From the NCBI GenBank assembly GCA_044337015.1, contig JBIIOJ010000001.1:1-57850 (forward strand): a stretch of 57,850 nucleotides of DNA. Reading direction: 5' to 3'. The position numbers were made by a program, and so were the translations under genes. This DNA is from Pirellulales bacterium (GTDB lineage Bacteria > Planctomycetota > Planctomycetia > Pirellulales > UBA1268). Positions within the stretch are counted from its first letter, which is position 1; each line of letters starts with the position of its first letter. Positions 7,227-47,516 of the stretch are shown here, piece by piece. A model generated the notes under the pieces. It did not search any database. It saw only the letters and a program-made list of their open reading frames with translations, and was not told where the DNA came from.

Positions 7227-7925
7227 ATGAGCACCGGACCGCGGGAGATCGCCACGTTTTTCGAGGACATCGACTTCGTGGGGGATCGGAACCATCGCAA
7301 GCAGGAATATCGCCGCGACATCCTTCGGACGCTGGAGCTTCATTCGGAGACCTTCGCCGCCCATGGCTGGCGGGTCGTGCAGGTGGGGATGGAGGCGGCG
7401 AGGAGCCACCCGCTGTTCCCCTGGTTCGACAAGCTCGACTGGTTCTACGCGTTGAGCGTGAATCCGCCGCGGTACAGCCGGATTTGCTACATGCGTTGGC
7501 TCGCCTACGCGGCCTCAGGCCTCCCCTTCGCCGATCTCGATGTCATCAACTTCGGCTTCACGCCCGAGGACGCGATGCCCTTCTTCGACACGAAGCTCCC
7601 GTCGCTCATCTCGGCCGCCAACGCGATGGGTATCCTCACTCCCGATCACTACACACAGATTCTCGACTCCTACCGCCACATCGTGGAGCATCTCGACGAG
7701 TACAGGCGTGACGTCGACGACGTCAACGACATGACGCTCCTGCGTCACGTGCGGCCGGAATACAACTCGGTGATTCCCTACACGGACGACCGATTCGTGA
7801 AGGACTATTCGAACCCCGGATGGGAGACGGCCCGCCTCGTCCATTTTGCCCACGGACTCACGCCCCTGCCCCGCAGTCGGACCATCGAGGCCGAGATACT
7901 CGCCCGGGAATCGGCTCGGCGATGA
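7227..7925 (+). CDS. Hypothetical protein (possible DXD-type glycosyltransferase)
   Basis: This 232-aa ORF is divergent from the GT2 gene. The segment RICYMRWLAYAASGLPFADLDVINF resembles the xxRxxxLxxxGGxYxDxD motif of GT32-type sugar transferases. The similarity is weak. Confidence 0.45.
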   Translation: MSTGPREIATFFEDIDFVGDRNHRKQEYRRDILRTLELHSETFAAHGWRVVQVGMEAARSHPLFPWFDKLDWFYALSVNPPRYSRICYMRWLAYAASGLPFADLDVINFGFTPEDAMPFFDTKLPSLISAANAMGILTPDHYTQILDSYRHIVEHLDEYRRDVDDVNDMTLLRHVRPEYNSVIPYTDDRFVKDYSNPGWETARLVHFAHGLTPLPRSRTIEAEILARESARR

Positions 7926-14882: not shown

Positions 14883-16373
14883 TTACGCGAGCAAATCCTG
14901 CACGATGCGGGCGTGCTCCACGCCCGTGAGCCGCTGGTCGAGCCCGAGGTGGCGGTAGGTGAACCTCTCGTGGTCGAAGCCCATGAGGTGCAGCACCGTG
15001 GCGTGGAAATCACGGATGTGCACGGGGTCTTTCACGATATTGTAGGAAAAGTCGTCGGTCTCGCCGTGAATCCATCCCGGCCGCGAACCGCCGCCGCACA
15101 TCCACATGGTGAAGCAGCGGGGATGGTGATCGCGGCCATAGTTCTCCTTCGAAAGGCCGCCCTGGGAGTAGATCGTGCGGCCGAACTCGCCCCCCCAGAT
15201 GATGAGCGTCTCATCCAATAGGCCGCGGGCCTTGAGGTCCTGCACGAGACCCCAGCAGGCCTGGTCGATGTCCTTGCACTGGCTCGGGAGCCGGCCGGCC
15301 ACGTTGCCGTGGGTGTCCCAGTTGTTGAGATAGACCTGGACGAATCGCACGCCCCGCTCCACCATCCGTCGGGCCATGAGCGCCGTGTTGGCGAACGTTC
15401 CCGGCTTCTTGGCAGCCTCCCCGTAGAGGGCGTAGGTGTGCTCCGGCTCGGAAGCGAGATCCGTGAGGTCAGGCACGCTCGACTGCATCCGGAAGGCCAT
15501 CTCAAACTGGGCGATCCGCGTCCGTGTCTCGGGATCGCCGATCTCCCGAAGTGTCCGCTGATTCAGCGCCTGCAGGCCGTCGAGCGTCTTGCGACGGACC
15601 TCGGCCGACACGCCCGGGGGGTTGTTGATGTAGAGGATCGGGTCGCCCGCGGAGCGGAAGCTCACGCCGGCGTGCTCACCCGGCAGGTAGCCGCTCGACC
15701 AGAGCCGTGCGCCGATCGCCTGCACCTGCTCGGTGTTGGTCGGCTTCGCCACGAGCACGACGAACGTCGGCAGGTCCTTGTTGAGCGAGCCCAGCCCATA
15801 GCTCAGCCACGATCCCAGGCAGGGGCGGCCGGAGATCTGGTTGCCCGTCTGCATGTAGGTGATCGCAGGCTCGTGGTTGATCGCCTCGGTGTGCATCGAG
15901 CGGATGAAGCACATCTCGTCGACCATCCTCGACGTGTAGGGCAGGAGTTCGCTCACCCACATGCCGCTCTGGCCGTGCTGGGCAAACTTGTATTTCGAGG
16001 GCGCGATCGGAAACCTGGCCTGCCCGCTTGTCATCGTCGTGAGCCGCTGGCCGTTGCGGACGCTCTCGGGCAGGTCCTTGTCGTACCAGTCGTTCATGAC
16101 CGGCTTGTAGTCGTACATGTCCTGCTGCGGCGGCCCGCCCACCATGTGCAGGTAGATGACGTGCTTCGCCTTGGGAGCGAAGTGGGGCCCGATCGCCCCG
16201 GCGACCCGCTCGATTCCAGCCGACGACGACGAAGCGTTGCCGAGGGCCGTGCTTCGCCCAAGCAGCGTGGAGAGCGCCGCTCCGCCGAGCAGATGGCTGC
16301 CGGTCCCGAAGAACCGGCGGCGAGTGAGGTTCAGCCCGAGTTCGTCGAGCGGGGAGCGGATCGGGGGATTCAT
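14883..16373 (-). CDS. DUF1501 (sulfatase-like) protein with twin-arginine signal
   Basis: I place the start at the internal ATG (MNPPIRSPLDELGLNLTRRRFFGTG...), a Tat-type signal. The body shows typical DUF1501 blocks (GGPPQQDMYDYKP, WDTHGN, IWGGEFGRT, GRDHHP). The 52 codons upstream in the track ORF overlap the preceding gene. Confidence 0.9.
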   Translation of the reverse strand: MNPPIRSPLDELGLNLTRRRFFGTGSHLLGGAALSTLLGRSTALGNASSSSAGIERVAGAIGPHFAPKAKHVIYLHMVGGPPQQDMYDYKPVMNDWYDKDLPESVRNGQRLTTMTSGQARFPIAPSKYKFAQHGQSGMWVSELLPYTSRMVDEMCFIRSMHTEAINHEPAITYMQTGNQISGRPCLGSWLSYGLGSLNKDLPTFVVLVAKPTNTEQVQAIGARLWSSGYLPGEHAGVSFRSAGDPILYINNPPGVSAEVRRKTLDGLQALNQRTLREIGDPETRTRIAQFEMAFRMQSSVPDLTDLASEPEHTYALYGEAAKKPGTFANTALMARRMVERGVRFVQVYLNNWDTHGNVAGRLPSQCKDIDQACWGLVQDLKARGLLDETLIIWGGEFGRTIYSQGGLSKENYGRDHHPRCFTMWMCGGGSRPGWIHGETDDFSYNIVKDPVHIRDFHATVLHLMGFDHERFTYRHLGLDQRLTGVEHARIVQDLLA

Positions 16374-16384
16374 GGCGTCGGCTC

Positions 16385-19300
16385 CTACTTGCAGAGCACT
16401 TCGTCGAGGTTCATCAGTTCGTTCGTGAGCATCGCCCAGCTCGCCAGCTGCACGGCGTCGGTGGACCTCGGCTTCGAGTCGCCGATGGCGATCAGTTTCT
16501 TCGCGTCGTCCGGGTGGGCCTTGTACCACTCTGCCAGGTCGGCGAGGGATTTCTTCACGATCGCGATCTCGTCGGCGGCGAGGGGGCGGGCCAGCAGTCG
16601 CTCGGCGATGTAGTCGATCCGGGAGTCGTCGGTGTCGCCCGCCACTTCCAGGGCCCGGTCGGCGAGAAACCTCGCCGCTTCGACGAACTGCGGGTCGTTG
16701 AGCGTGACAAGCGCCTGGAGCGGCGTATTCGTCCGCTCCCTCTTCACGCAGCAGTTCTCGCGGGATGGCGCATTGAATATGTCCATCGAGGCCGGCGGCG
16801 CCGACCGCTTCCAGAACCAGTACATGCTGCGACGGTAAAGATTCTCTCCCTTGTCTCGCTTGTAGGTGTTCGTGTTGCCGCCCATCGAAACCGCCTCCCA
16901 GACGCCGTCGGGCTGGTAGGGCTTCACGCTCGGGCCGCCGATCTGCCGCACGAGCAGGCCGCTTGCCGCGAGCGCGTGGTCGCGGACCATCTCCGCATCC
17001 ATCCGAAATCGCGGACCCCGAGAGAGAAGCCTGTTGTCGGCGTCCTTCACGAGCTTCTGCGGCGTGGTCGCCGCGGTCTGGCGGTAGGCGGCGCTCGTCA
17101 CCATGAGCCGGAACAGCTTCTTCACGTCCCAGCCGCTCTCACGAAACTCGACGGCCAGCCAATCGAGCAGTTCCGGGTGGCTCGGCAATTCTCCGGTCGT
17201 GCCGAAGTCGCCGCTCGTGCGGACGAGCCCGGTGCCGAAGACCTCCTGCCAGAAGCGGTTCACGGTCACGCGGGTCGTGAGCGGGTGATCCTGGAGGAGC
17301 AGCCACCGGGCGAGGCCGAGACGGTTTCGCGGCAGATCCTCCGGGAAGTCGGGGAGGATTTCGGGCGTGTCGGGCTTCACCTCCTCGCCCCGCTTGTCAT
17401 ATTCGCCGCGGTTCAGGATGTAGGCCTTCGCCATCTCGTTCTTTTCATGCATCACGTGGGCGACGGTGCCCCGCTTGCGGATGTCGGCATGCTCCGACTC
17501 GAGGACGGCCACTTTCGCCGCGGCCGCCTTGGAGGGCTCGTCGAAGTTCGCCAGCCACCAGTCGAACAGTCCGCCGGCAGCCTTCACCCGCTCCGCAGGC
17601 GGCATCTTCACGATCTGCGAGATCGCCTGTGCCCTGGAGAGGCCCTCCACTTCCCTGGCCGCGAGACCGCGGCCCCATAACGCCAGGCCAGCCAGACCGA
17701 CCCCGTGGGCCGTCGAAGCCTGCGAACGCCCGCCGACGACGAGCGGTGTGCCGGTCTTGATCGTCGTCTTTTTGAAGGTATTCGATTCGATCTTGGGGGC
17801 CTGCGGCTTGCCGTCGTAGTAGATCTTCACACCTTCGGCCTTGCCCGATCCGTCGTATGTCACCGCCACGAGCGTCCAGGCGTCGGGCTTGAGCTGCGTC
17901 GAAGACACCACTTTGATGGCGTCTTCAGGGTAGGCGTGGACAAGGTGCATCATGACCCGGCGGCCATGCACGCCGACGTCCCAGCCACGGTGGGCATTCG
18001 CCTCGTCCATCCGCGCTACCACGGCATACGCCGAATCGTTCGCCGGCGGCCGCAGCCAGAACGTGACGCTGAACGGATGGTCGTGCTCGAAGTCACCGGC
18101 GTCTGCGAGCTCCGCCGCCCGCCCGTCGAGCAGCAGCGCCCCCACCCCGCTCGGGCCGGCCTGCCACTTCGTCGAGGTCGTGAGCGGCAGGTCGATCTGC
18201 TTGCCGACGACCCTCGCGAGCGTCTTCGTGCCCTCCCCCTCGAGGAGATCGATCTCGAGAAGCGGCGTGTCCTGCGGCTCGACCTTTTCGGCCACGGCGG
18301 GAGTGGCCTCGGTGATCCAGCGGTCGAACTCGGGCCGCGCCGCCTGCTTGCGAGCCGTCACCGCCTCACGACCGGTGGCCAGCTCCTTTTCCACCACGGC
18401 GAAACGCTCGCGGTCCTCCGCCTTCGGCACGACGAGGATCGGCGGGTTGTCGTGGATGTTGCCGTCTCTCACCGGCTGCGTCGTGTTGTTGAAGAAGGCG
18501 GCGAGCTCGTAGAACTCCTTCTGCGAGAGCGGGTCGAACTTGTGGTTGTGGCAGACGGCACAGCCGGCCGTGAGCCCCATCCAGACCGCCGCCGTGGTCT
18601 CCGTGCGATCGCGGGTGTAGAGGACGGCGTACTCCTCGTCGATGATGCCCCCCTCGTTCGTCGTCATGTTGCAGCGGTGAAAGCCGCTGGCGACCTTGGC
18701 GTCGAGGATCTGCTCGGGCGATGCGTTCGGGCCGTGGTCGTTCACGAGGTCGCCCGCCAACTGCAGGATCGTGAACCGGTCGAACGGCATGTTGCGGTTG
18801 AACGCGTTCACCACCCACTGACGGTAGGTCCACATCTCACGGTAGTTGTCGAAGTGAATGCCGTGCGTGTCGGCGTAGCGGGAGTAGTCGAGCCAGTGGC
18901 GGCCGCGGTGCTCACCCCACTCGAGGGATCCAAGCAGCGAGTCGACGAGACGCTCGTAGGCGTCGGGGTAGGGGTCGGCGACGAACGCATCGACGATCGC
19001 CGGAGCGGGCGGAAGGCCGGTCAGATCGAGCGAAACGCGGCGGGCCAGCACCCGGCGATCAGCTTCGGGGGCGGGAGAGAGCCCTTCGGCCTCGAGCCTC
19101 GAGAGAATGAAGCGGTCGATCGGGTTTCTCGTCCATCCCTCGTTCTTCACGGCCGGCAGTTCGGGCCGCTTGGGCGGAATGAACGACCAGTGCGGCTGAT
19201 ATTCGGCCCCCTCCGCGATCCACCGCTCGAGCAGTGCCTTCTGCTCCGCGGTGAGCACCTTCTTCGCCGAGGGAGGCGGCATCACTTCCTCGTGATCGTC

Positions 19301-43383: not shown

Positions 43384-44868
43384 TCAGGCCAGGATGCCCT
43401 TCACGACATGGCCGTGCACGTCGGTGAGGCGGAACTGGCGGCCCTGGTAGCGGAAGGTGAGCTTCGTGTGGTCGATGCCCGCGAGGTGCATGATCGTGGC
43501 CTGCATGTCGTGCACGTGGACGGGATTGGCCGTGATGTTCCAGGCGTAGTCGTCGGTCGAGCCGTGGACGTGGCCGGCCTTCGCGCCGCCGCCGGCGAGC
43601 ACCCAGGAGAAGGCCCTGCCGAAGTGGTCGCGGCCCTTGGGGTTGGCGGGATCCCCCTGGCCGAACGGAGTGCGGCCGAACTCGCCCCCCCAGACGACGA
43701 GCGTGTCTTCGAGCAGGCCGCGGTCCTTGAGATCCTGGACGAGCGCCGCGGTCGGGGCGTCGGTGTCCTTGCACTGCTCCGCGAGCTGCGTGAAGAGGTT
43801 GCCGTGCTGGTCCCAGCCGGCGTGCATGAGCTGCACGAACCGCGTGCCCCGCTCGAGGAGCCGCCTGGCGATGAGGCAGTTGTAGGCGAACGTGCCCTTC
43901 GTCCTCACGTCGGGACCGTAGCGGTCGATCACATGCTTCGGCTCGTCGCTGAAGTCCACGAGATCCGGAACGCTCGCCTGCATCCGGTAGGCCATCTCGT
44001 ACTGCGCGATCCGCGTGTCGATCTCAGGGTCGCCGTAGTCGGCGAGGTGCTTGGCGTTCATCGCGGCCAGGTCGTCGAGGAGCACCCTGCGAGCCTCCCG
44101 GCTGACGCCGGATGGATTGTCGAGATACGGCACCGGCTCGCCCGTGTTGCGGAACTTCACCCCCTGGAACCGGGTCGGCAGGAAGCCGCTGCCCCAGTAG
44201 TAGTCGAAAAACAATTGCCCGCAGGTCTTGCCCTTGTCGCTCGAGGTCATCACGACGAATGCCGGCAGGTCCTCCGTCTCGCAGCCGAGGCCGTAGCTCA
44301 TCCAGGCCCCCATGCTCGGCCGACCGGGCACCTGGGCGCCGCTGAGGAAGAAGGTCACGCCGGGGGCGTGGTTCACGGCCTCCGTGTTCATGCTCCGCAC
44401 GAGGCAGAGGTCGTCGGCAAGCCCGCCGATGTTCGGCACAAGCTCGCTCATCTCCATCCCGCACTGTCCGTATTTTTTGAAGGGTTTGATCGGGGAGACG
44501 ACCGGCCACTTCGCATAGCCGCTCGACATCGTCGAGAGCCGCGTCTGGCCGCGGACGGTCGCGGGGATGTCCTGGCCGCCGCGATTCATGAGTTCGGGCT
44601 TGGGGTCGAAGAGATCGACGTGCGACGGCCCGCCCCCCTGCCAGAGCATCACCACCCGCTTCGCCTTCGGCTCGTGGTGCGGCAGCCCGGGCAACCCGGG
44701 CATTCCTCGGGAAGCCGACGAGGACGACGCCGCGGCGACCGAATCCTGCCGGAGCAGCGATGCGAGCGCCACCGAGCCGATCCCCATGCCCGCCGAGCCG
44801 AAGAGCTGGCGACGGGTCTGAAAAAGGTGCCAGCCACCAAATCTGGGTAATTTCATTTGATCATCCAT
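43384..44868 (-). CDS. DUF1501 (sulfatase-like) protein with twin-arginine signal
   Basis: QTRRQLFGSAGMGIGSVALA is a Tat signal. GGGPSHVDLFDPKP, WDQHGN, VWGGEFGRTP and GRDHF are DUF1501 blocks. The start codon (44868, or 44856) lies inside the loop of the palindromic element described below. Confidence 0.9.
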   Translation of the reverse strand: MDDQMKLPRFGGWHLFQTRRQLFGSAGMGIGSVALASLLRQDSVAAASSSSASRGMPGLPGLPHHEPKAKRVVMLWQGGGPSHVDLFDPKPELMNRGGQDIPATVRGQTRLSTMSSGYAKWPVVSPIKPFKKYGQCGMEMSELVPNIGGLADDLCLVRSMNTEAVNHAPGVTFFLSGAQVPGRPSMGAWMSYGLGCETEDLPAFVVMTSSDKGKTCGQLFFDYYWGSGFLPTRFQGVKFRNTGEPVPYLDNPSGVSREARRVLLDDLAAMNAKHLADYGDPEIDTRIAQYEMAYRMQASVPDLVDFSDEPKHVIDRYGPDVRTKGTFAYNCLIARRLLERGTRFVQLMHAGWDQHGNLFTQLAEQCKDTDAPTAALVQDLKDRGLLEDTLVVWGGEFGRTPFGQGDPANPKGRDHFGRAFSWVLAGGGAKAGHVHGSTDDYAWNITANPVHVHDMQATIMHLAGIDHTKLTFRYQGRQFRLTDVHGHVVKGILA

Positions 44869-44916
44869 GCAAGACGCCTGCCCAAATTAACCAGATTTGG
44901 TGGCTGGCACCTTTTT
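44821..44916. repeat. 96-nt palindromic element: perfect 26-bp inverted repeat with 44-nt AT-rich spacer (MITE-like element or large RNA hairpin)
   Basis: 44821-44846 AAAAAGGTGCCAGCCACCAAATCTGG is the exact reverse complement of 44891-44916. The spacer is markedly AT-rich compared with the rest of the window. TCT occurs at 44817-19 and 44917-19. Confidence 0.9.
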
Positions 44917-44936
44917 TCTTTTTTTCGGTCATCGCT

Positions 44937-47516
44937 TCACTCCCGCGTGAGGGCCTCGTCGAGGTTGAAGATAGCGAGGCAGACGCTCGTCATCGCCGCG
45001 TGGTCGGCAGGGTCGAGCGACTTGTCGCGGGGGCTTTCACCGACGGCGAGCAGCTGCTTCACGGCATCCATGTCGGTGCCGTAGATCGCGAGCTGGCGGG
45101 CGTGCATCCGCTTCAGGGCCTCGAGGTCGTACGGCGTCGGCGTGCGGCCGAGGATGCGGCGGAAGGCGTGGGTGAGCCGTCCGTCGAGGTCGAAGCCGGC
45201 GAGCATGCTCTTCTCCGCGAGCACCCGCGACGCCTCGACCCAGGTCGGATCGTTGAGCGTGGTGAGCGCGTGGAGCGGCGTGCTCGTGCGGCTCGCGCGG
45301 ACGGTGCAGGTCTGGCGGTTGGCGGTGTCGAACATGTTCGCCGGGCTCACCGTCCGCCGCCAGAACGTGTAGAGGCTGCGGCGGTAGAGGTCGGGGCCGT
45401 GCGAGGCGGGATAGGTGAAGTCTCGCTCCTTCGTGATCGCAAGCGCCTCCCAGATCGCGTCGGGCTGGTAGGGGTAGACGGGCTGGCCGCCGATCCGCAG
45501 GTCGATCAAGCCGCTCGCCACGAGGGCCACGTCGCGCAGCACCATCGACGGCATCCGGAACCGGCTCGCGCGGGCGTGGAGCCTGTTCTCCGGGTCCTTG
45601 GCCAGGTGATCGGCCGTCACCTTGCTCGACTGCCGGTACGTGGCGCTCGTCACGAGCAGGCGGTGCATCTTCTTCTGGCTCCAGCCCTGCTCGCGGAACT
45701 CGACCGCCAGCCAGTCGAGCAGGTCCATGTGCTGCGGATACTCGCTCTGCACGCCCATGTCCTCGGTCGTCTTCACGATTCCCGTGCCGAAGAGCTGCTG
45801 CCACATCCGGTTCACCTGCACCCGTGCGGTGAGAGGATGCTCCGGGAGGAAGAGCCACTTCGCGAGCCCGAGCCGATTTCGCGGAAAGCCCTCGGGCAGC
45901 CGCGGCAGGAATGCCGGGGGCAGGAAGGTGAGCTTCTCGCCGACGGGCGAGAGATAGTCGCCGCGGTCGAGGATCTTCGTCTCACGCGGCTTCTCGTCGC
46001 TCATCACCATCACCCGTGGGATCTGGTCGCCCTTGTATTCCTCGTAGGCCTTCTTGGCGGCGTCGTAGGCGGTGACCTGTGGCAGGTTCTTGATGACGCG
46101 AGGTTTCACTTTCGTGTCGAAGTGGGCGCGGAGTCCCCCCTCGATCGATTTCTTGTCTTCCTCGGTCCGCTCTGCCTCGGGCTTCCGCAGCAGCGGCGTG
46201 AGGTACCGGGACAGATCCTCGCCGTCGGCAGCCTCGCCATCGGAAAACAGGCCGTCTTTCCACGATGCGTAGAGGGCGTCGATCACCGGCTTCGCCTCCG
46301 ACTCACGGGCCTTCATGGCGGCCTCGAGATCGGCCAGCCGACGGGTGTTCTCCTCGGAGGGCAATTCCACGATCGGCGGGGCGACGCGGATCCGAGTGGA
46401 GAATCGCGTCGGCTCGCCCGTCTCCGGGAGCCTGTTGAAGGCGTCGAGCAGGCCGTAGTAGTCGGTCCGCGTCATCGGGTCGTACTTGTGGTCGTGGCAC
46501 TGGGCGCAGGCCATCGTGAGGCCCAGCCACGTCGTGCTCGTCGTGTCCACCCGGTCGAAGAGGTTGTTGAAACGCTGCTCCTCGGGGATCGCGCCCCCCT
46601 CGCCGTTCAAGAGATGGTTGCGGTTGAAGCCGCTGGCGATCTTCTGCTCGGTGGTCGCGTTCGGGAGGAGGTCGCCGGCCAGCTGCTCGATCGAGAACTG
46701 GTCGAACGGCATGTCGGCGTTGAGTGCCTTCACGACCCAGTCCCGCCAGATCCACTGCCAGGTGTCGCCGTCCTGCTGGAAGCCGTTGCTGTCGGCGTAG
46801 CGGGCGGCGTCGAGCCAGGGAAGCGCCATCCGCTCGCCGTAGTGGGGCGAGGCCAGCAGCCGGTCGACGAGCTTTTCGTAGGCGTCCGGATCGGGATCGG
46901 CGACGAAGGCGTCGACCTCCTCGGGCGTCGGCGGAAGCCCCGTGAGGTCGGCGTGGAGCCGGCGAATGAGCACGGCCCGATCGGCCTCCGGCGACGGCGC
47001 GAGGCCCGCCGCCTCGATCTTCGCAAGCACGAATCGGTCGATGGCATTTCGCACCCAGTCGGCCCGCCTCACTTCCGGCGGCACCGGACGCGCTGGCGGG
47101 GTGAACGCCCAGTGGGGCTCGTATTCGGCACCCTGCTTGATCCAGCGTTCGAGAATCGTCTTCTGCTCTTCCGAGAGCCGCCGATTGGAGTTCGGCGGCG
47201 GCATCAGGACGTCAGGGTCGGTCGAGTGGATCCGCTCGAGGATAGCGCTCGCGCCAGGCTCACCCGGCGCGATCGCCCCGGCCTCGATCGCGGCGGCCCG
47301 ATCATCGAGCCTGAGATCGGCCTCCCGCTTCGCCGGATCCTGGCCGTGGCAGTAAAGGCAGTTTTCCGACAGGATCGGCCGGACGTCGCGGTTGAAGTCG
47401 AGCGGCGCTGGCGGGTCGGCGGCCGGAGATGCCGACGCAATCGCCGCACCCATCACGAAGCCGACCCGGACGAGCCGGGCTACGCGAACGCCTCGAGAAA
47501 AAACCGAGCAACCCAT
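44937..47516 (-). CDS. PSCyt1/DUF1549/DUF1553/PSD1 planctomycete cytochrome-domain protein
   Basis: The 859-aa product has a signal peptide, the haem motif ENCLYCHGQD, CAQCHDHKYDP and RVQVNRMWQQLFG. It has no LamG-like insert, unlike the other copy. Confidence 0.9.
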   Translation of the reverse strand: MGCSVFSRGVRVARLVRVGFVMGAAIASASPAADPPAPLDFNRDVRPILSENCLYCHGQDPAKREADLRLDDRAAAIEAGAIAPGEPGASAILERIHSTDPDVLMPPPNSNRRLSEEQKTILERWIKQGAEYEPHWAFTPPARPVPPEVRRADWVRNAIDRFVLAKIEAAGLAPSPEADRAVLIRRLHADLTGLPPTPEEVDAFVADPDPDAYEKLVDRLLASPHYGERMALPWLDAARYADSNGFQQDGDTWQWIWRDWVVKALNADMPFDQFSIEQLAGDLLPNATTEQKIASGFNRNHLLNGEGGAIPEEQRFNNLFDRVDTTSTTWLGLTMACAQCHDHKYDPMTRTDYYGLLDAFNRLPETGEPTRFSTRIRVAPPIVELPSEENTRRLADLEAAMKARESEAKPVIDALYASWKDGLFSDGEAADGEDLSRYLTPLLRKPEAERTEEDKKSIEGGLRAHFDTKVKPRVIKNLPQVTAYDAAKKAYEEYKGDQIPRVMVMSDEKPRETKILDRGDYLSPVGEKLTFLPPAFLPRLPEGFPRNRLGLAKWLFLPEHPLTARVQVNRMWQQLFGTGIVKTTEDMGVQSEYPQHMDLLDWLAVEFREQGWSQKKMHRLLVTSATYRQSSKVTADHLAKDPENRLHARASRFRMPSMVLRDVALVASGLIDLRIGGQPVYPYQPDAIWEALAITKERDFTYPASHGPDLYRRSLYTFWRRTVSPANMFDTANRQTCTVRASRTSTPLHALTTLNDPTWVEASRVLAEKSMLAGFDLDGRLTHAFRRILGRTPTPYDLEALKRMHARQLAIYGTDMDAVKQLLAVGESPRDKSLDPADHAAMTSVCLAIFNLDEALTRE

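Follow-up and report, generated by a model that had tools for sequence, protein, structure and literature searches.

How does a bacterial gene come to begin inside a hairpin? The question is raised by a stretch of 57,850 nucleotides (nt) from a Pirellulales bacterium (contig JBIIOJ010000001.1; the whole stretch is called the window here), on whose minus strand a gene for a PSCyt1/PSCyt2/PSD1 protein (below, PSD1) is followed by a gene for a DUF1501 protein. A long palindrome lies at the junction, and the DUF1501 frame opens within its loop. We consider it quite probable that a copy of a dispersed repeat, similar to the REP doublets forming hairpins (REPINs; REP, repetitive extragenic palindromic), landed in the first codons of the DUF1501 gene, and that its loop and one of its arms now encode the start of that gene.

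The palindrome and the start of the DUF1501 gene

The core of the palindrome is an inverted repeat in which 44821-44846 is the exact reverse complement of 44891-44916, with no mismatch over 26 bp; none of 100 shuffles gave any match. The paired arms are longer than first noted, at 33 nt each with one mismatch (97% complementary), and enclose a 30-nt loop, the spacer between the perfect 26-nt arms being 44 nt (Table 1). On the coding strand the element reads G-AAAAAA-GGTGCCAGCCACCAAATCTGGTTAATTT ... AAATTACCCAGATTTGGTGGCTGGCACC-TTTTT-C, and the minus-strand junction as a whole reads TGA-AGCG-ATGACCGAAAAAAAG-(AAAAAGGTGCCAGCCACCAAATCTGGTTAATTT-loop-AAATTACCCAGATTTGGTGGCTGGCACCTTTTT)-CAG-ACC CGT CGC CAG. 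GC content falls from ~70% outside the element to ~46-48% across it. The junction RNA, whose folding had been suggested in the initial annotation of this DNA, folds with -70.9 kcal/mol (z = -8.5).

It is in the loop that the DUF1501 gene now appears to start. Upstream of the twin-arginine motif, the only in-frame ATG, GTG or TTG codons in the window are at 44868 and 44856, both in the loop, and translation of the DUF1501 frame confirmed that a stretch of the 3' arm encodes PRFGGWHLF. The N-terminus reads MDDQMKLPRFGGWHLFQ-TRRQLF-GSAGMGIGSVALASLL, which has the n-region, twin-arginine motif and hydrophobic h-region of a twin-arginine translocation (Tat) signal, as judged by eye, and the motif is kept in all DUF1501 orthologues compared. 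A second PSD1/DUF1501 pair in the window (16290-16430, minus strand) has an 11-nt gap with GGAG 10 nt before the ATG, and its DUF1501 protein has a 17-residue n-region (MNPPIRSPLDELGLNL-TRRRFF); the new N-terminus is therefore normal in length, long n-regions being usual here. The initial annotation had read all of these sequence features correctly (the exact 26-bp repeat, the two loop starts, the arm-encoded peptide and the 11-nt gap of the other pair), and its view that the element supplies the N-terminus is supported, with the present start in the loop and one arm translated.

A short upstream frame reported there is also present in the sequence. An ATG at 44932-44930, 4 nt past the PSD1 stop (TGA 44939-44937), opens an out-of-frame upstream open reading frame (uORF) of 23 codons, which crosses the 5' arm and terminates with a TGA (44863-44861) that overlaps the DUF1501 start (ATGgaTGA). 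The uORF may act as a relay by termination-reinitiation at the DUF1501 start, a coupling role that we infer; it is absent from the other alleles read.

Table 1. Coordinates of the junction features and of the two genes in the window (SD, Shine-Dalgarno)
Feature	Position	Strand	Remarks and basis
Whole palindromic element, REPIN-like inverted doublet	44820..44918		99 nt including flanking G...C; boundary from family consensus (A-run/T-run)
5' arm (coding strand)	44884..44916	minus	outside translated DUF1501; crossed by 23-codon uORF
3' arm (coding strand)	44821..44853	minus	translated KLPRFGGWHLF, part of DUF1501 signal-peptide n-region
Loop	44854..44883	minus	unpaired in consensus fold; holds purine-rich SD-like tract and start codons
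Purine-rich SD-like tract GGGCAGG	44877..44883	minus	ends 8 nt before ATG; allele alignments
Most likely DUF1501 start codon, ATG	44866..44868	minus	alignment; no competing upstream start
Second in-frame ATG, inner arm edge (ATGAAATTA)	44854..44856	minus	found in window, L059 and L132 only
Relic of ancestral DUF1501 start, ATGACCGA (from M-T-D)	44925..44932	minus	match to start of L136
Out-of-frame uORF, 23 codons (MTEKKKKGASHQIWLIWAGVLHG*)	44861..44932	minus	read directly from sequence
Stop codon TGA of upstream PSCyt1/PSCyt2/PSD1 gene	44937..44939	minus	
PSCyt1/PSCyt2/PSD1 gene	44937-47516	minus	domain search
DUF1501 gene, 494 aa	43384..44868	minus	Pfam PF07394, E = 4.8e-147
Twin-arginine motif TRRQLF	44800..44817	minus	first ancestral sequence past element, bar possible ancestral Q codon

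The window carries an extra AAAAAAG at 44918-44924, which may be a case like the short tandem duplications at the arm's outer end (e.g. GGCACCTTTTTTAGCTTTTTTAGCTGGCACCTTTTTTAGC or AAAAAGAAAAAGAAAAAGG) observed at L043/L163, L015, L105, L101, L144, L052 and L143.

Empty and occupied alleles of the junction

The state of the junction before the palindrome can be read from its relatives. Among the 120 best DUF1501 cluster representatives, 119 begin with the residues M-x-D-L-H-L-E-N-x-x-R-V-TRRQLF, and P0014 alone has an N-terminus derived from the repeat. In the query's own 90% cluster most members are also empty, i.e. without the element, the occupied ones being P0124, P0125 and P0131 plus the decayed P0128; DNA-pattern scans added L059, L146 and L166. 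Nine occupied alleles were found in all, eight of them read as DNA and P0131 from protein only, and the arm-encoded peptide is present in P0014, P0124, P0125, P0131, L059, L146, L166 and L167. In the DNA of five empty junctions (L126, L130, L136, L137 and L138), the stop codon is followed by a 3-29-nt spacer and ATG-xxx-GAY-CTS-CAY..., and 12-13 residues (M-x-D-L-H-L-E-N-x-x-R-V) stand ahead of TRR. Since nearly all orthologues have the empty N-terminus and the empty junction itself was read as DNA, the element is a derived insertion, as had been proposed. The alternative of a native RNA duplex is not supported, the hairpin being a member of a dispersed family.

The site of entry is not the one first suggested. 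The initial annotation had put the insertion in codon 5-6, but in the window ATGACCGA matches exactly the opening 8 nt of L136, an empty sister allele (ATG ACC GAT CTG CAC), and in L167 a decayed arm is followed by ancestral codons from about codon 4 (...PRFGGGHHF-LHRENLARL-TRRR). Because the relic in the window and the codons retained in L167 complement each other, we would place the insertion at about codon 3, with a subsequent in-frame loss of ancestral codons. What is kept after the arm ranges from nine ancestral residues in L167 through QRV in L146 (arm plus S-QRV-TRR), V in P0131 and Q in the window, L125, L132, L134 and L166 to none in L059, and this trimming series at the right junction is in frame throughout. 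On the left side the old spacer and start have been lost unequally: the window keeps 4 nt and ATGACCGA, L125 keeps GACACG, and the TAA stop of L132 and L134 merges with the A-run.

The start in the loop is conserved along with the frame. Seven of the occupied alleles have both arms readable and could be aligned, and six of these have ATG at the position of 44868; in L146, which lacks it, an in-frame GTG stands two columns downstream. With the loop ATG of L167, likewise in frame, in-frame loop starts are present in all eight alleles that were read as DNA, seven with ATG and L146 with GTG. In all nine occupied alleles the frame is open from the loop start through TRR despite indels there (ATG in eight, GTG in L146), and the three alleles found by pattern only, L059, L146 and L166, have all kept the frame through a 3-nt deletion and a difference of 9 nt at the right junction. 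A purine-rich tract precedes the start by ~8-9 nt in the seven aligned alleles (AGGAAGG, GGAAAGG, AGAAAGG or GAGAGGA at 8-9 nt; GAAAAG in L146), and tract and start are kept although the loops average only 56% identity.

A history that would account for these alleles is as follows. The element would have entered at about codon 3 of the Tat signal peptide and severed the old start, of which the relic at 44932-44925 remains, from the gene. The gene would have survived on an in-frame ATG in the loop (44868), with a purine-rich tract ahead of it, and the 3' arm, read as KLPRFGGWHLF, would have become the new n-region before the twin-arginine motif. The n-region of a signal peptide tolerates nearly any sequence. 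The leftover downstream codons and the dead upstream spacer would then have been trimmed differently by lineage, with the frame always kept. The alleles would thereby preserve, step by step and unusually clearly, how a selfish hairpin was built into a gene, with a relic of the old start, progressive codon trimming and one decayed hairpin whose N-terminus is kept, and signal-peptide n-regions would be, in evolution, a permissive landing zone.

The repeat family and a candidate transposase

The palindrome is one of many. The 21-nt core of the arm occurs in >118 DNA stretches, with ~54 assemblies of metagenome-assembled genomes (MAGs; here, species-representative genomes) among the matches listed, and nearly all of the hosts are Planctomycetota MAGs from lake water; a metagenome scan listed 28 stretches. 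Up to 7 arm-bearing contigs fall in one MAG, and such per-genome copy numbers are lower bounds. These dispersed copies in many related genomes bear out the proposal of a REP-like mobile palindromic element and dispose of the contrary case, that the arms have no other copy anywhere. In 791 kb of retrieved loci, 238 arms form 85 inverted doublets and 68 singlets. The A-run points outward in every doublet, and the spacers fall into discrete length classes of 16-17, 31-35, 41-45 and 52-54 nt. The repeat unit is ~33 nt long, (G)AAAAAGGTGCCAGCCACCAAATCTGGGYAA, and the window element is an inverted doublet of it; conservation extends from the A-run to about position 33 and ends abruptly outside, and the consensus boundary is at the A/T runs with flanking G/C. 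No target duplication was found at 82 doublets: 59 have 0 nt of flanking direct repeat, 17 have 1, 5 have 2 and 1 has 3, and the direct repeats of the latter 23 fit chance expectation. A doublet folds with -33.9 kcal/mol (z = -9.5). In Rfam 15 the repeat has no family, the only matches being hairpin models of miRNA precursors at 20-33 bits against thresholds of 76-99.

Several MAGs with other labels (Candidatus Kuenenia stuttgartiensis, Chitinophagaceae, Crocinitomicaceae, Actinomycetota and Verrucomicrobiota) carry the same repeat, at loci L007, L018, L030, L065, L076, L094, L104, L107, L110 and L122 and at L024, L029, L031, L115 and L123; these labels are probably errors of taxonomy or binning and not true hosts. 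In another arrangement, which recurs in at least three MAGs (L018 390/1771, L026, L034, L069 and L102), a lone arm is followed by a conserved ~95 nt (GGGCAAAACCGGGAAGAGGCGGGCAATCTCCCGGCC...) and then by a second arm that is degenerate. At L018 and L069 this arrangement sits upstream of an open reading frame (ORF) beginning MLVSIFNDVIGPVMRGPSSSH, which may resemble serine dehydratases.

At eight loci, inverted arms ~780 nt apart bracket an ORF of 230-244 aa. It matches Pfam Y1_Tnp with 37.5 bits (cut-off 23); its sole NCBIfam match at E <= 0.001 is NF047646, REP-associated tyrosine transposase (RAYT); and its sole PDB match is the E. coli protein TnpA-REP, 4ER8 (E = 4.8e-9), in an alignment that includes the HUH and Tyr regions. 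The ORF shows the motifs NHWH, YQGRF and YVERNP, and transposase and doublets occur together in single MAGs (e.g. JBIIYN01 and JBILKZ01). Because the transposase gene is itself flanked by the same inverted units, we infer that a solitary IS200-like Y1/HUH transposase of the RAYT type moves the family. Neither a TnpB nor a DDE gene was noted beside the transposase; the sole neighbour inspected, a 404-aa ORF at L011 1066-2323 that adjoins the RAYT gene between two direct (same-strand) arms, has a P-loop (GPRQTGKST) and was judged ATPase-like by eye, with no family-library scan. At L095 63-1311 the arms are spaced as in L011, with similar sequence beside the outer arm. The longest ORF call there begins within an arm (MPRFGGWHLF...), which is probably an over-extension.

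The palindrome is an element of a known kind, REPIN-like or a dimer of terminal inverted repeats (TIRs). REPIN-RAYT systems (Bertels & Rainey 2011, PMC3116915; Bertels et al. 2017, PMC5581495; for REP and TnpA-REP of E. coli, PDB 4ER8) likewise consist of a short, many-copy dispersed repeat, found mostly as inverted doublets that fold to a long hairpin and also as singlets; the repeat flanks its Y1/HUH transposase gene, target duplication is absent and copies persist at orthologous sites across species. The present family differs in that its unit lacks both the imperfect palindrome and the GTAG/CGTC head, its transposase is under the REP_Tyr_transpos cut-off, its hosts are freshwater Planctomycetota rather than Proteobacteria, and one subfamily has a purine tract and an ATG in the spacer. 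TIRtrons (TIR families with TIR-associated tyrosine transposases; Di Nocera et al. 2013, PMC3733652) were described with many such genes and repeats in the planctomycete R. baltica and with REPs at the N-termini of ORFs. As in TIRtrons, RAYT-like genes lie here between inverted repeats that are not classical REPs, and the repeats are also dispersed as dimers; in contrast to the moderately abundant TIR families, as compared by description and not by sequence, the present family is abundant across ~54 MAG species. Since the unit is non-palindromic and has no GTAG/CGTC head, it is closer to the TIR dimers of PMC3733652 than to a classical REP.

The IS200/IS605 group and its palindrome-associated derivatives, with RAYT-type signatures such as YIH[QN]NP (Quentin et al. 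2018, PMC6006769), share with our family the Y1 HUH transposase, single-strand hairpin ends and the absence of target duplication. YVERNP has the form Y-x-x-x-NP, as do the RAYT-type signatures in PMC6006769, unlike class 3, which ends in EQ, or the class 1-related Y----Q. Unlike IS200/IS605, only a transposase lies between the inverted arms (the absence of tnpB is deduced), and the transposase gene occurs once per locus, whereas the short repeats are many.

Other repeats are comparable in where they lie. Correia elements of Neisseria and ERIC of enterobacteria are hairpin repeats of ~100-150 nt at gene boundaries in operons, are transcribed, change how neighbouring genes are expressed and can affect mRNA processing and translation, and Correia elements have TA duplications and DDE-type ancestry. 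The palindrome in the window is likewise a hairpin-forming repeat at a gene boundary in an operon; we know of no Correia or ERIC copy that gives a conserved start codon to a Tat signal peptide. Rickettsia palindromic elements insert in frame into protein genes and are tolerated, and N-terminal cases are expressed. Here too a palindromic repeat has turned coding and is tolerated; Rickettsia elements, however, add in frame a peptide segment, either internal or terminal, whereas here the original frame is broken and the element gives the start codon, and the sequences are unrelated. The Rickettsia elements are also cited in PMC3733652. The present repeat belongs to a large, apparently undescribed REPIN-like family with a tyrosine transposase in freshwater Planctomycetota.

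Copies of the element lie at the starts of other genes as well. At a second locus, L149 ~1076-1162 and L145 ~7238-7324 (both minus strand), the same loop ATG and translated arm are found: the upstream ORF ends at a TAA inside the inner 5' arm (...TKKVPATKSG*), and a 674-aa membrane protein with a weak ABC2_membrane_2 match reads from the loop ATG (MDTGIKLPRFGGWHLF-AGVLAAV... / MNGGMKLPRFGGWHRF), no alternative start being present within 180 nt. Homology links the loop of L149/L145 to the junction loops; the ATG in the spacer is thus a subfamily trait. More commonly, genes that read outward from an arm have their ATG 0-25 nt past the T-run. At a different PSD1/DUF1501-type junction in five MAGs (L098, L100, L109, L112 and L074), a doublet exactly fills the gap from stop to start (e.g. 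L100 6210-6290), with the upstream stop TAA running into the A-run (...LDETFMCP*) and the DUF1501 ATG at least 3 nt past the T-run (3 nt in L098, L109 and L112; MNPILESKLLATRRHL). For annotation, ORF starts within such repeats can be real, and N-terminal peptides like KLPRFGGWHLF flag them. In L027 a doublet stands ahead of another DUF1501 paralogue. Further genes whose sole plausible start is inside an element occur at L124 3836-3860, L106 937-1010 and L010 4226-4330; they encode an ABC ATPase (TTG/GTG start in the arm), a DUF6798 protein, with a lipoprotein-like signal and a 5' end that spans the whole doublet, and a PPC-domain protein.

Alternative explanations and the scatter of occupied alleles

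It is less clear whether the hairpin does anything beyond encoding a start. In the seven alleles with both arms readable, 33 pairs align with 96.5% of cells paired (slid controls, 32-55%), double-sided changes occur at three internal pairs and at the outermost pair, and none of 500 shuffles reaches the covariation score; the RNAalifold consensus fold leaves the loop open. A structural role may have been retained, because the stem is kept with these compensatory changes. We regard it as possible, if somewhat doubtful, that the hairpin is kept mainly as an RNA or DNA structure (for coupling or gating of PSD1-DUF1501 translation, as an RNase III or stability element, or as a partial terminator) and that coding use is secondary, which would be compatible with the insertion of a REPIN-like copy. 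Mean identity among the seven alleles is 91.5% in the arms and 56% in the loops, with flanking genes at ~85%. Substitutions in the arms are nearly all amino-acid changing (R/K, G/D/A, L/R, P/S), a freedom that would suit a signal-peptide n-region; it is therefore not the peptide that is constrained. In L132, L134 and L149/L145 a stop codon abuts or overlaps the 5' arm, the uORF of the window crosses this arm and stops on the start codon, and family copies usually lie 0-25 nt ahead of a start codon. Ribosomes finishing PSD1, or the uORF in the window, could then melt the 5' arm and expose the start in the loop; if the hairpin does gate translation in this way, it would be a natural case of repeat-borne translational coupling. 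However, the arm conservation could be explained by structural selection, by transposase recognition or by conversion between copies, and it is also expected from recent insertion. Moreover, L167 has lost the arm sequence and kept the N-terminal extension. As to termination, no terminator-like site scored and no promoter was found in a scan of 44500-45300; an intrinsic terminator has a GC-rich stem, a 3-8-nt loop and a U-tract after it, and here the loop measures 30 nt and the A-run is the pairing partner of the T-run. Nor does any Rfam family support a structured RNA, the matches to miRNA hairpins being far below threshold.

The remaining explanations fare less well. The insertion might have killed or truncated the gene, leaving a pseudogene or a start at Met-28 (MGIGS) without a Tat signal and a coincidental loop ATG, and the NCBI annotation of L167 does start at MGIGS; but this seems improbable. 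Intact orthologues share 85-92% identity with the body, which gives a full-length Pfam match; no occupied allele has lost the twin-arginine motif or the h-region; and all nine are open from the loop start through TRR despite indels. We give very little weight to the clean event first envisaged, in which a MITE, a miniature transposable element with inverted repeats, landed in codon 5-6 with a 3-bp TCT duplication, such that removal of 97 or 100 nt restores MTEKK(Q)TRRQLF and the empty junction reads TGA-N4-ATGACCGAAAAAAAGCAGACC. Its arithmetic stands, a 97-nt deletion being in frame, and TCT does occur on both flanks, at 44817-19 and 44917-19. The excision product MTEKKQTRRQLF (MTEKK-QTRRQLF), however, is in none of ~135 orthologues, empty alleles have 12-13 residues before TRR, and L167 and L146 retain ancestral codons after the arm; as for the duplication, the TCT copies are one base out of register with the arms, and direct repeats are missing from the flanks of 59 of the 82 family doublets. 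A classical MITE of a DDE transposase, with TIRs and a target duplication, rather than a REPIN-type element, would fit the long inverted repeats and the size of ~70-100 nt, yet it is most improbable: target duplication is absent, the only gene bracketed by inverted arms is the Y1/HUH transposase, and the L011 neighbour, ATPase-like by eye, lies between arms in direct orientation. Misassembly, too, can produce palindromes, and some contigs break off within copies (L167 and L006), but the chance that this one is a chimeric artefact is negligible. The identical junction is on six contigs, each from a different Joint Genome Institute (JGI) metagenome, and is therefore not an assembly artefact, a concern raised at the outset; further, diverged homologous alleles are present in other assemblies.

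Several observations nevertheless weigh against the landing of a REPIN-like copy as we have described it. As to class, no GTAG/CGTC head is found in the conserved 33 nt of the unit, unlike classical REPs; a single unit folds to a 4-bp stem only (-2.8 kcal/mol, z = -0.1); and the transposase scores 70.3 bits with NF047646, under the equivalog cut-off of 80. The 57.8-kb window contains neither a RAYT gene nor a second copy of the element or its arms, which bears on their co-residence in this organism. As to the hairpin, the stem is not conserved everywhere, the arm of L167 having decayed, and an arm pattern served to find three of the seven aligned alleles, which biases arm conservation upward; ATG 44868, for its part, is a putative start. 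Finally, in a neighbor-joining (NJ) tree of DUF1501 protein bodies the occupied alleles are not monophyletic, each standing beside an empty one, and their flanks track the empty sisters right to the junction, while the loop of L149 is as close to the junction loops as these are among themselves.

This scatter constrains how the occupied alleles arose. The closest pair, occupied L132 and empty L137, share 88-94% identity segment by segment, as far as the element on either side. A single ancient insertion with simple vertical descent is contradicted by the scatter in the tree and by flanks like those of empty sisters. Spread by homologous recombination is unlikely, no donor-like flank being detectable within 6-60 nt of the element, and homology of the loops is no proof of a single origin, the L149/L145 loop at another gene being equally similar. 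Recurrent insertion at one codon, allele exchange by very short tracts in a mosaic region and a long-lived polymorphism are the candidates. A more speculative idea, which we think rather unlikely, is that one subfamily acts as a portable translation-start cassette: its ~44-nt spacer, with an SD-like tract and ATG, and its arms, open in three frames, would have been recruited repeatedly at gene junctions, giving secreted or membrane proteins a start and an n-region, with initiation tied to ribosomes that melt the 5' arm. Were this so, the scatter would reflect recurrent site-specific insertion at one codon or a hairpin/no-hairpin polymorphism long kept across species.

The surroundings of the junction are themselves variable. 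The 3' end of PSD1, 60-150 nt before the stop (~45000-45090 in the window), is hypervariable and mosaic, with 59-75% identity between haplotype groups and 85-93% within them (one comprising the window, L059 and L130, the other L132 and L137), which points to recombination around the junction. The empty junction has a small hairpin of its own, GACAGGC-TTCA-GCCTGTC, in a 26-nt spacer (L130 3976-4000 and L137 340-364), and this spacer is identical at 25 of 26 positions between lineages whose genes are ~15% different.

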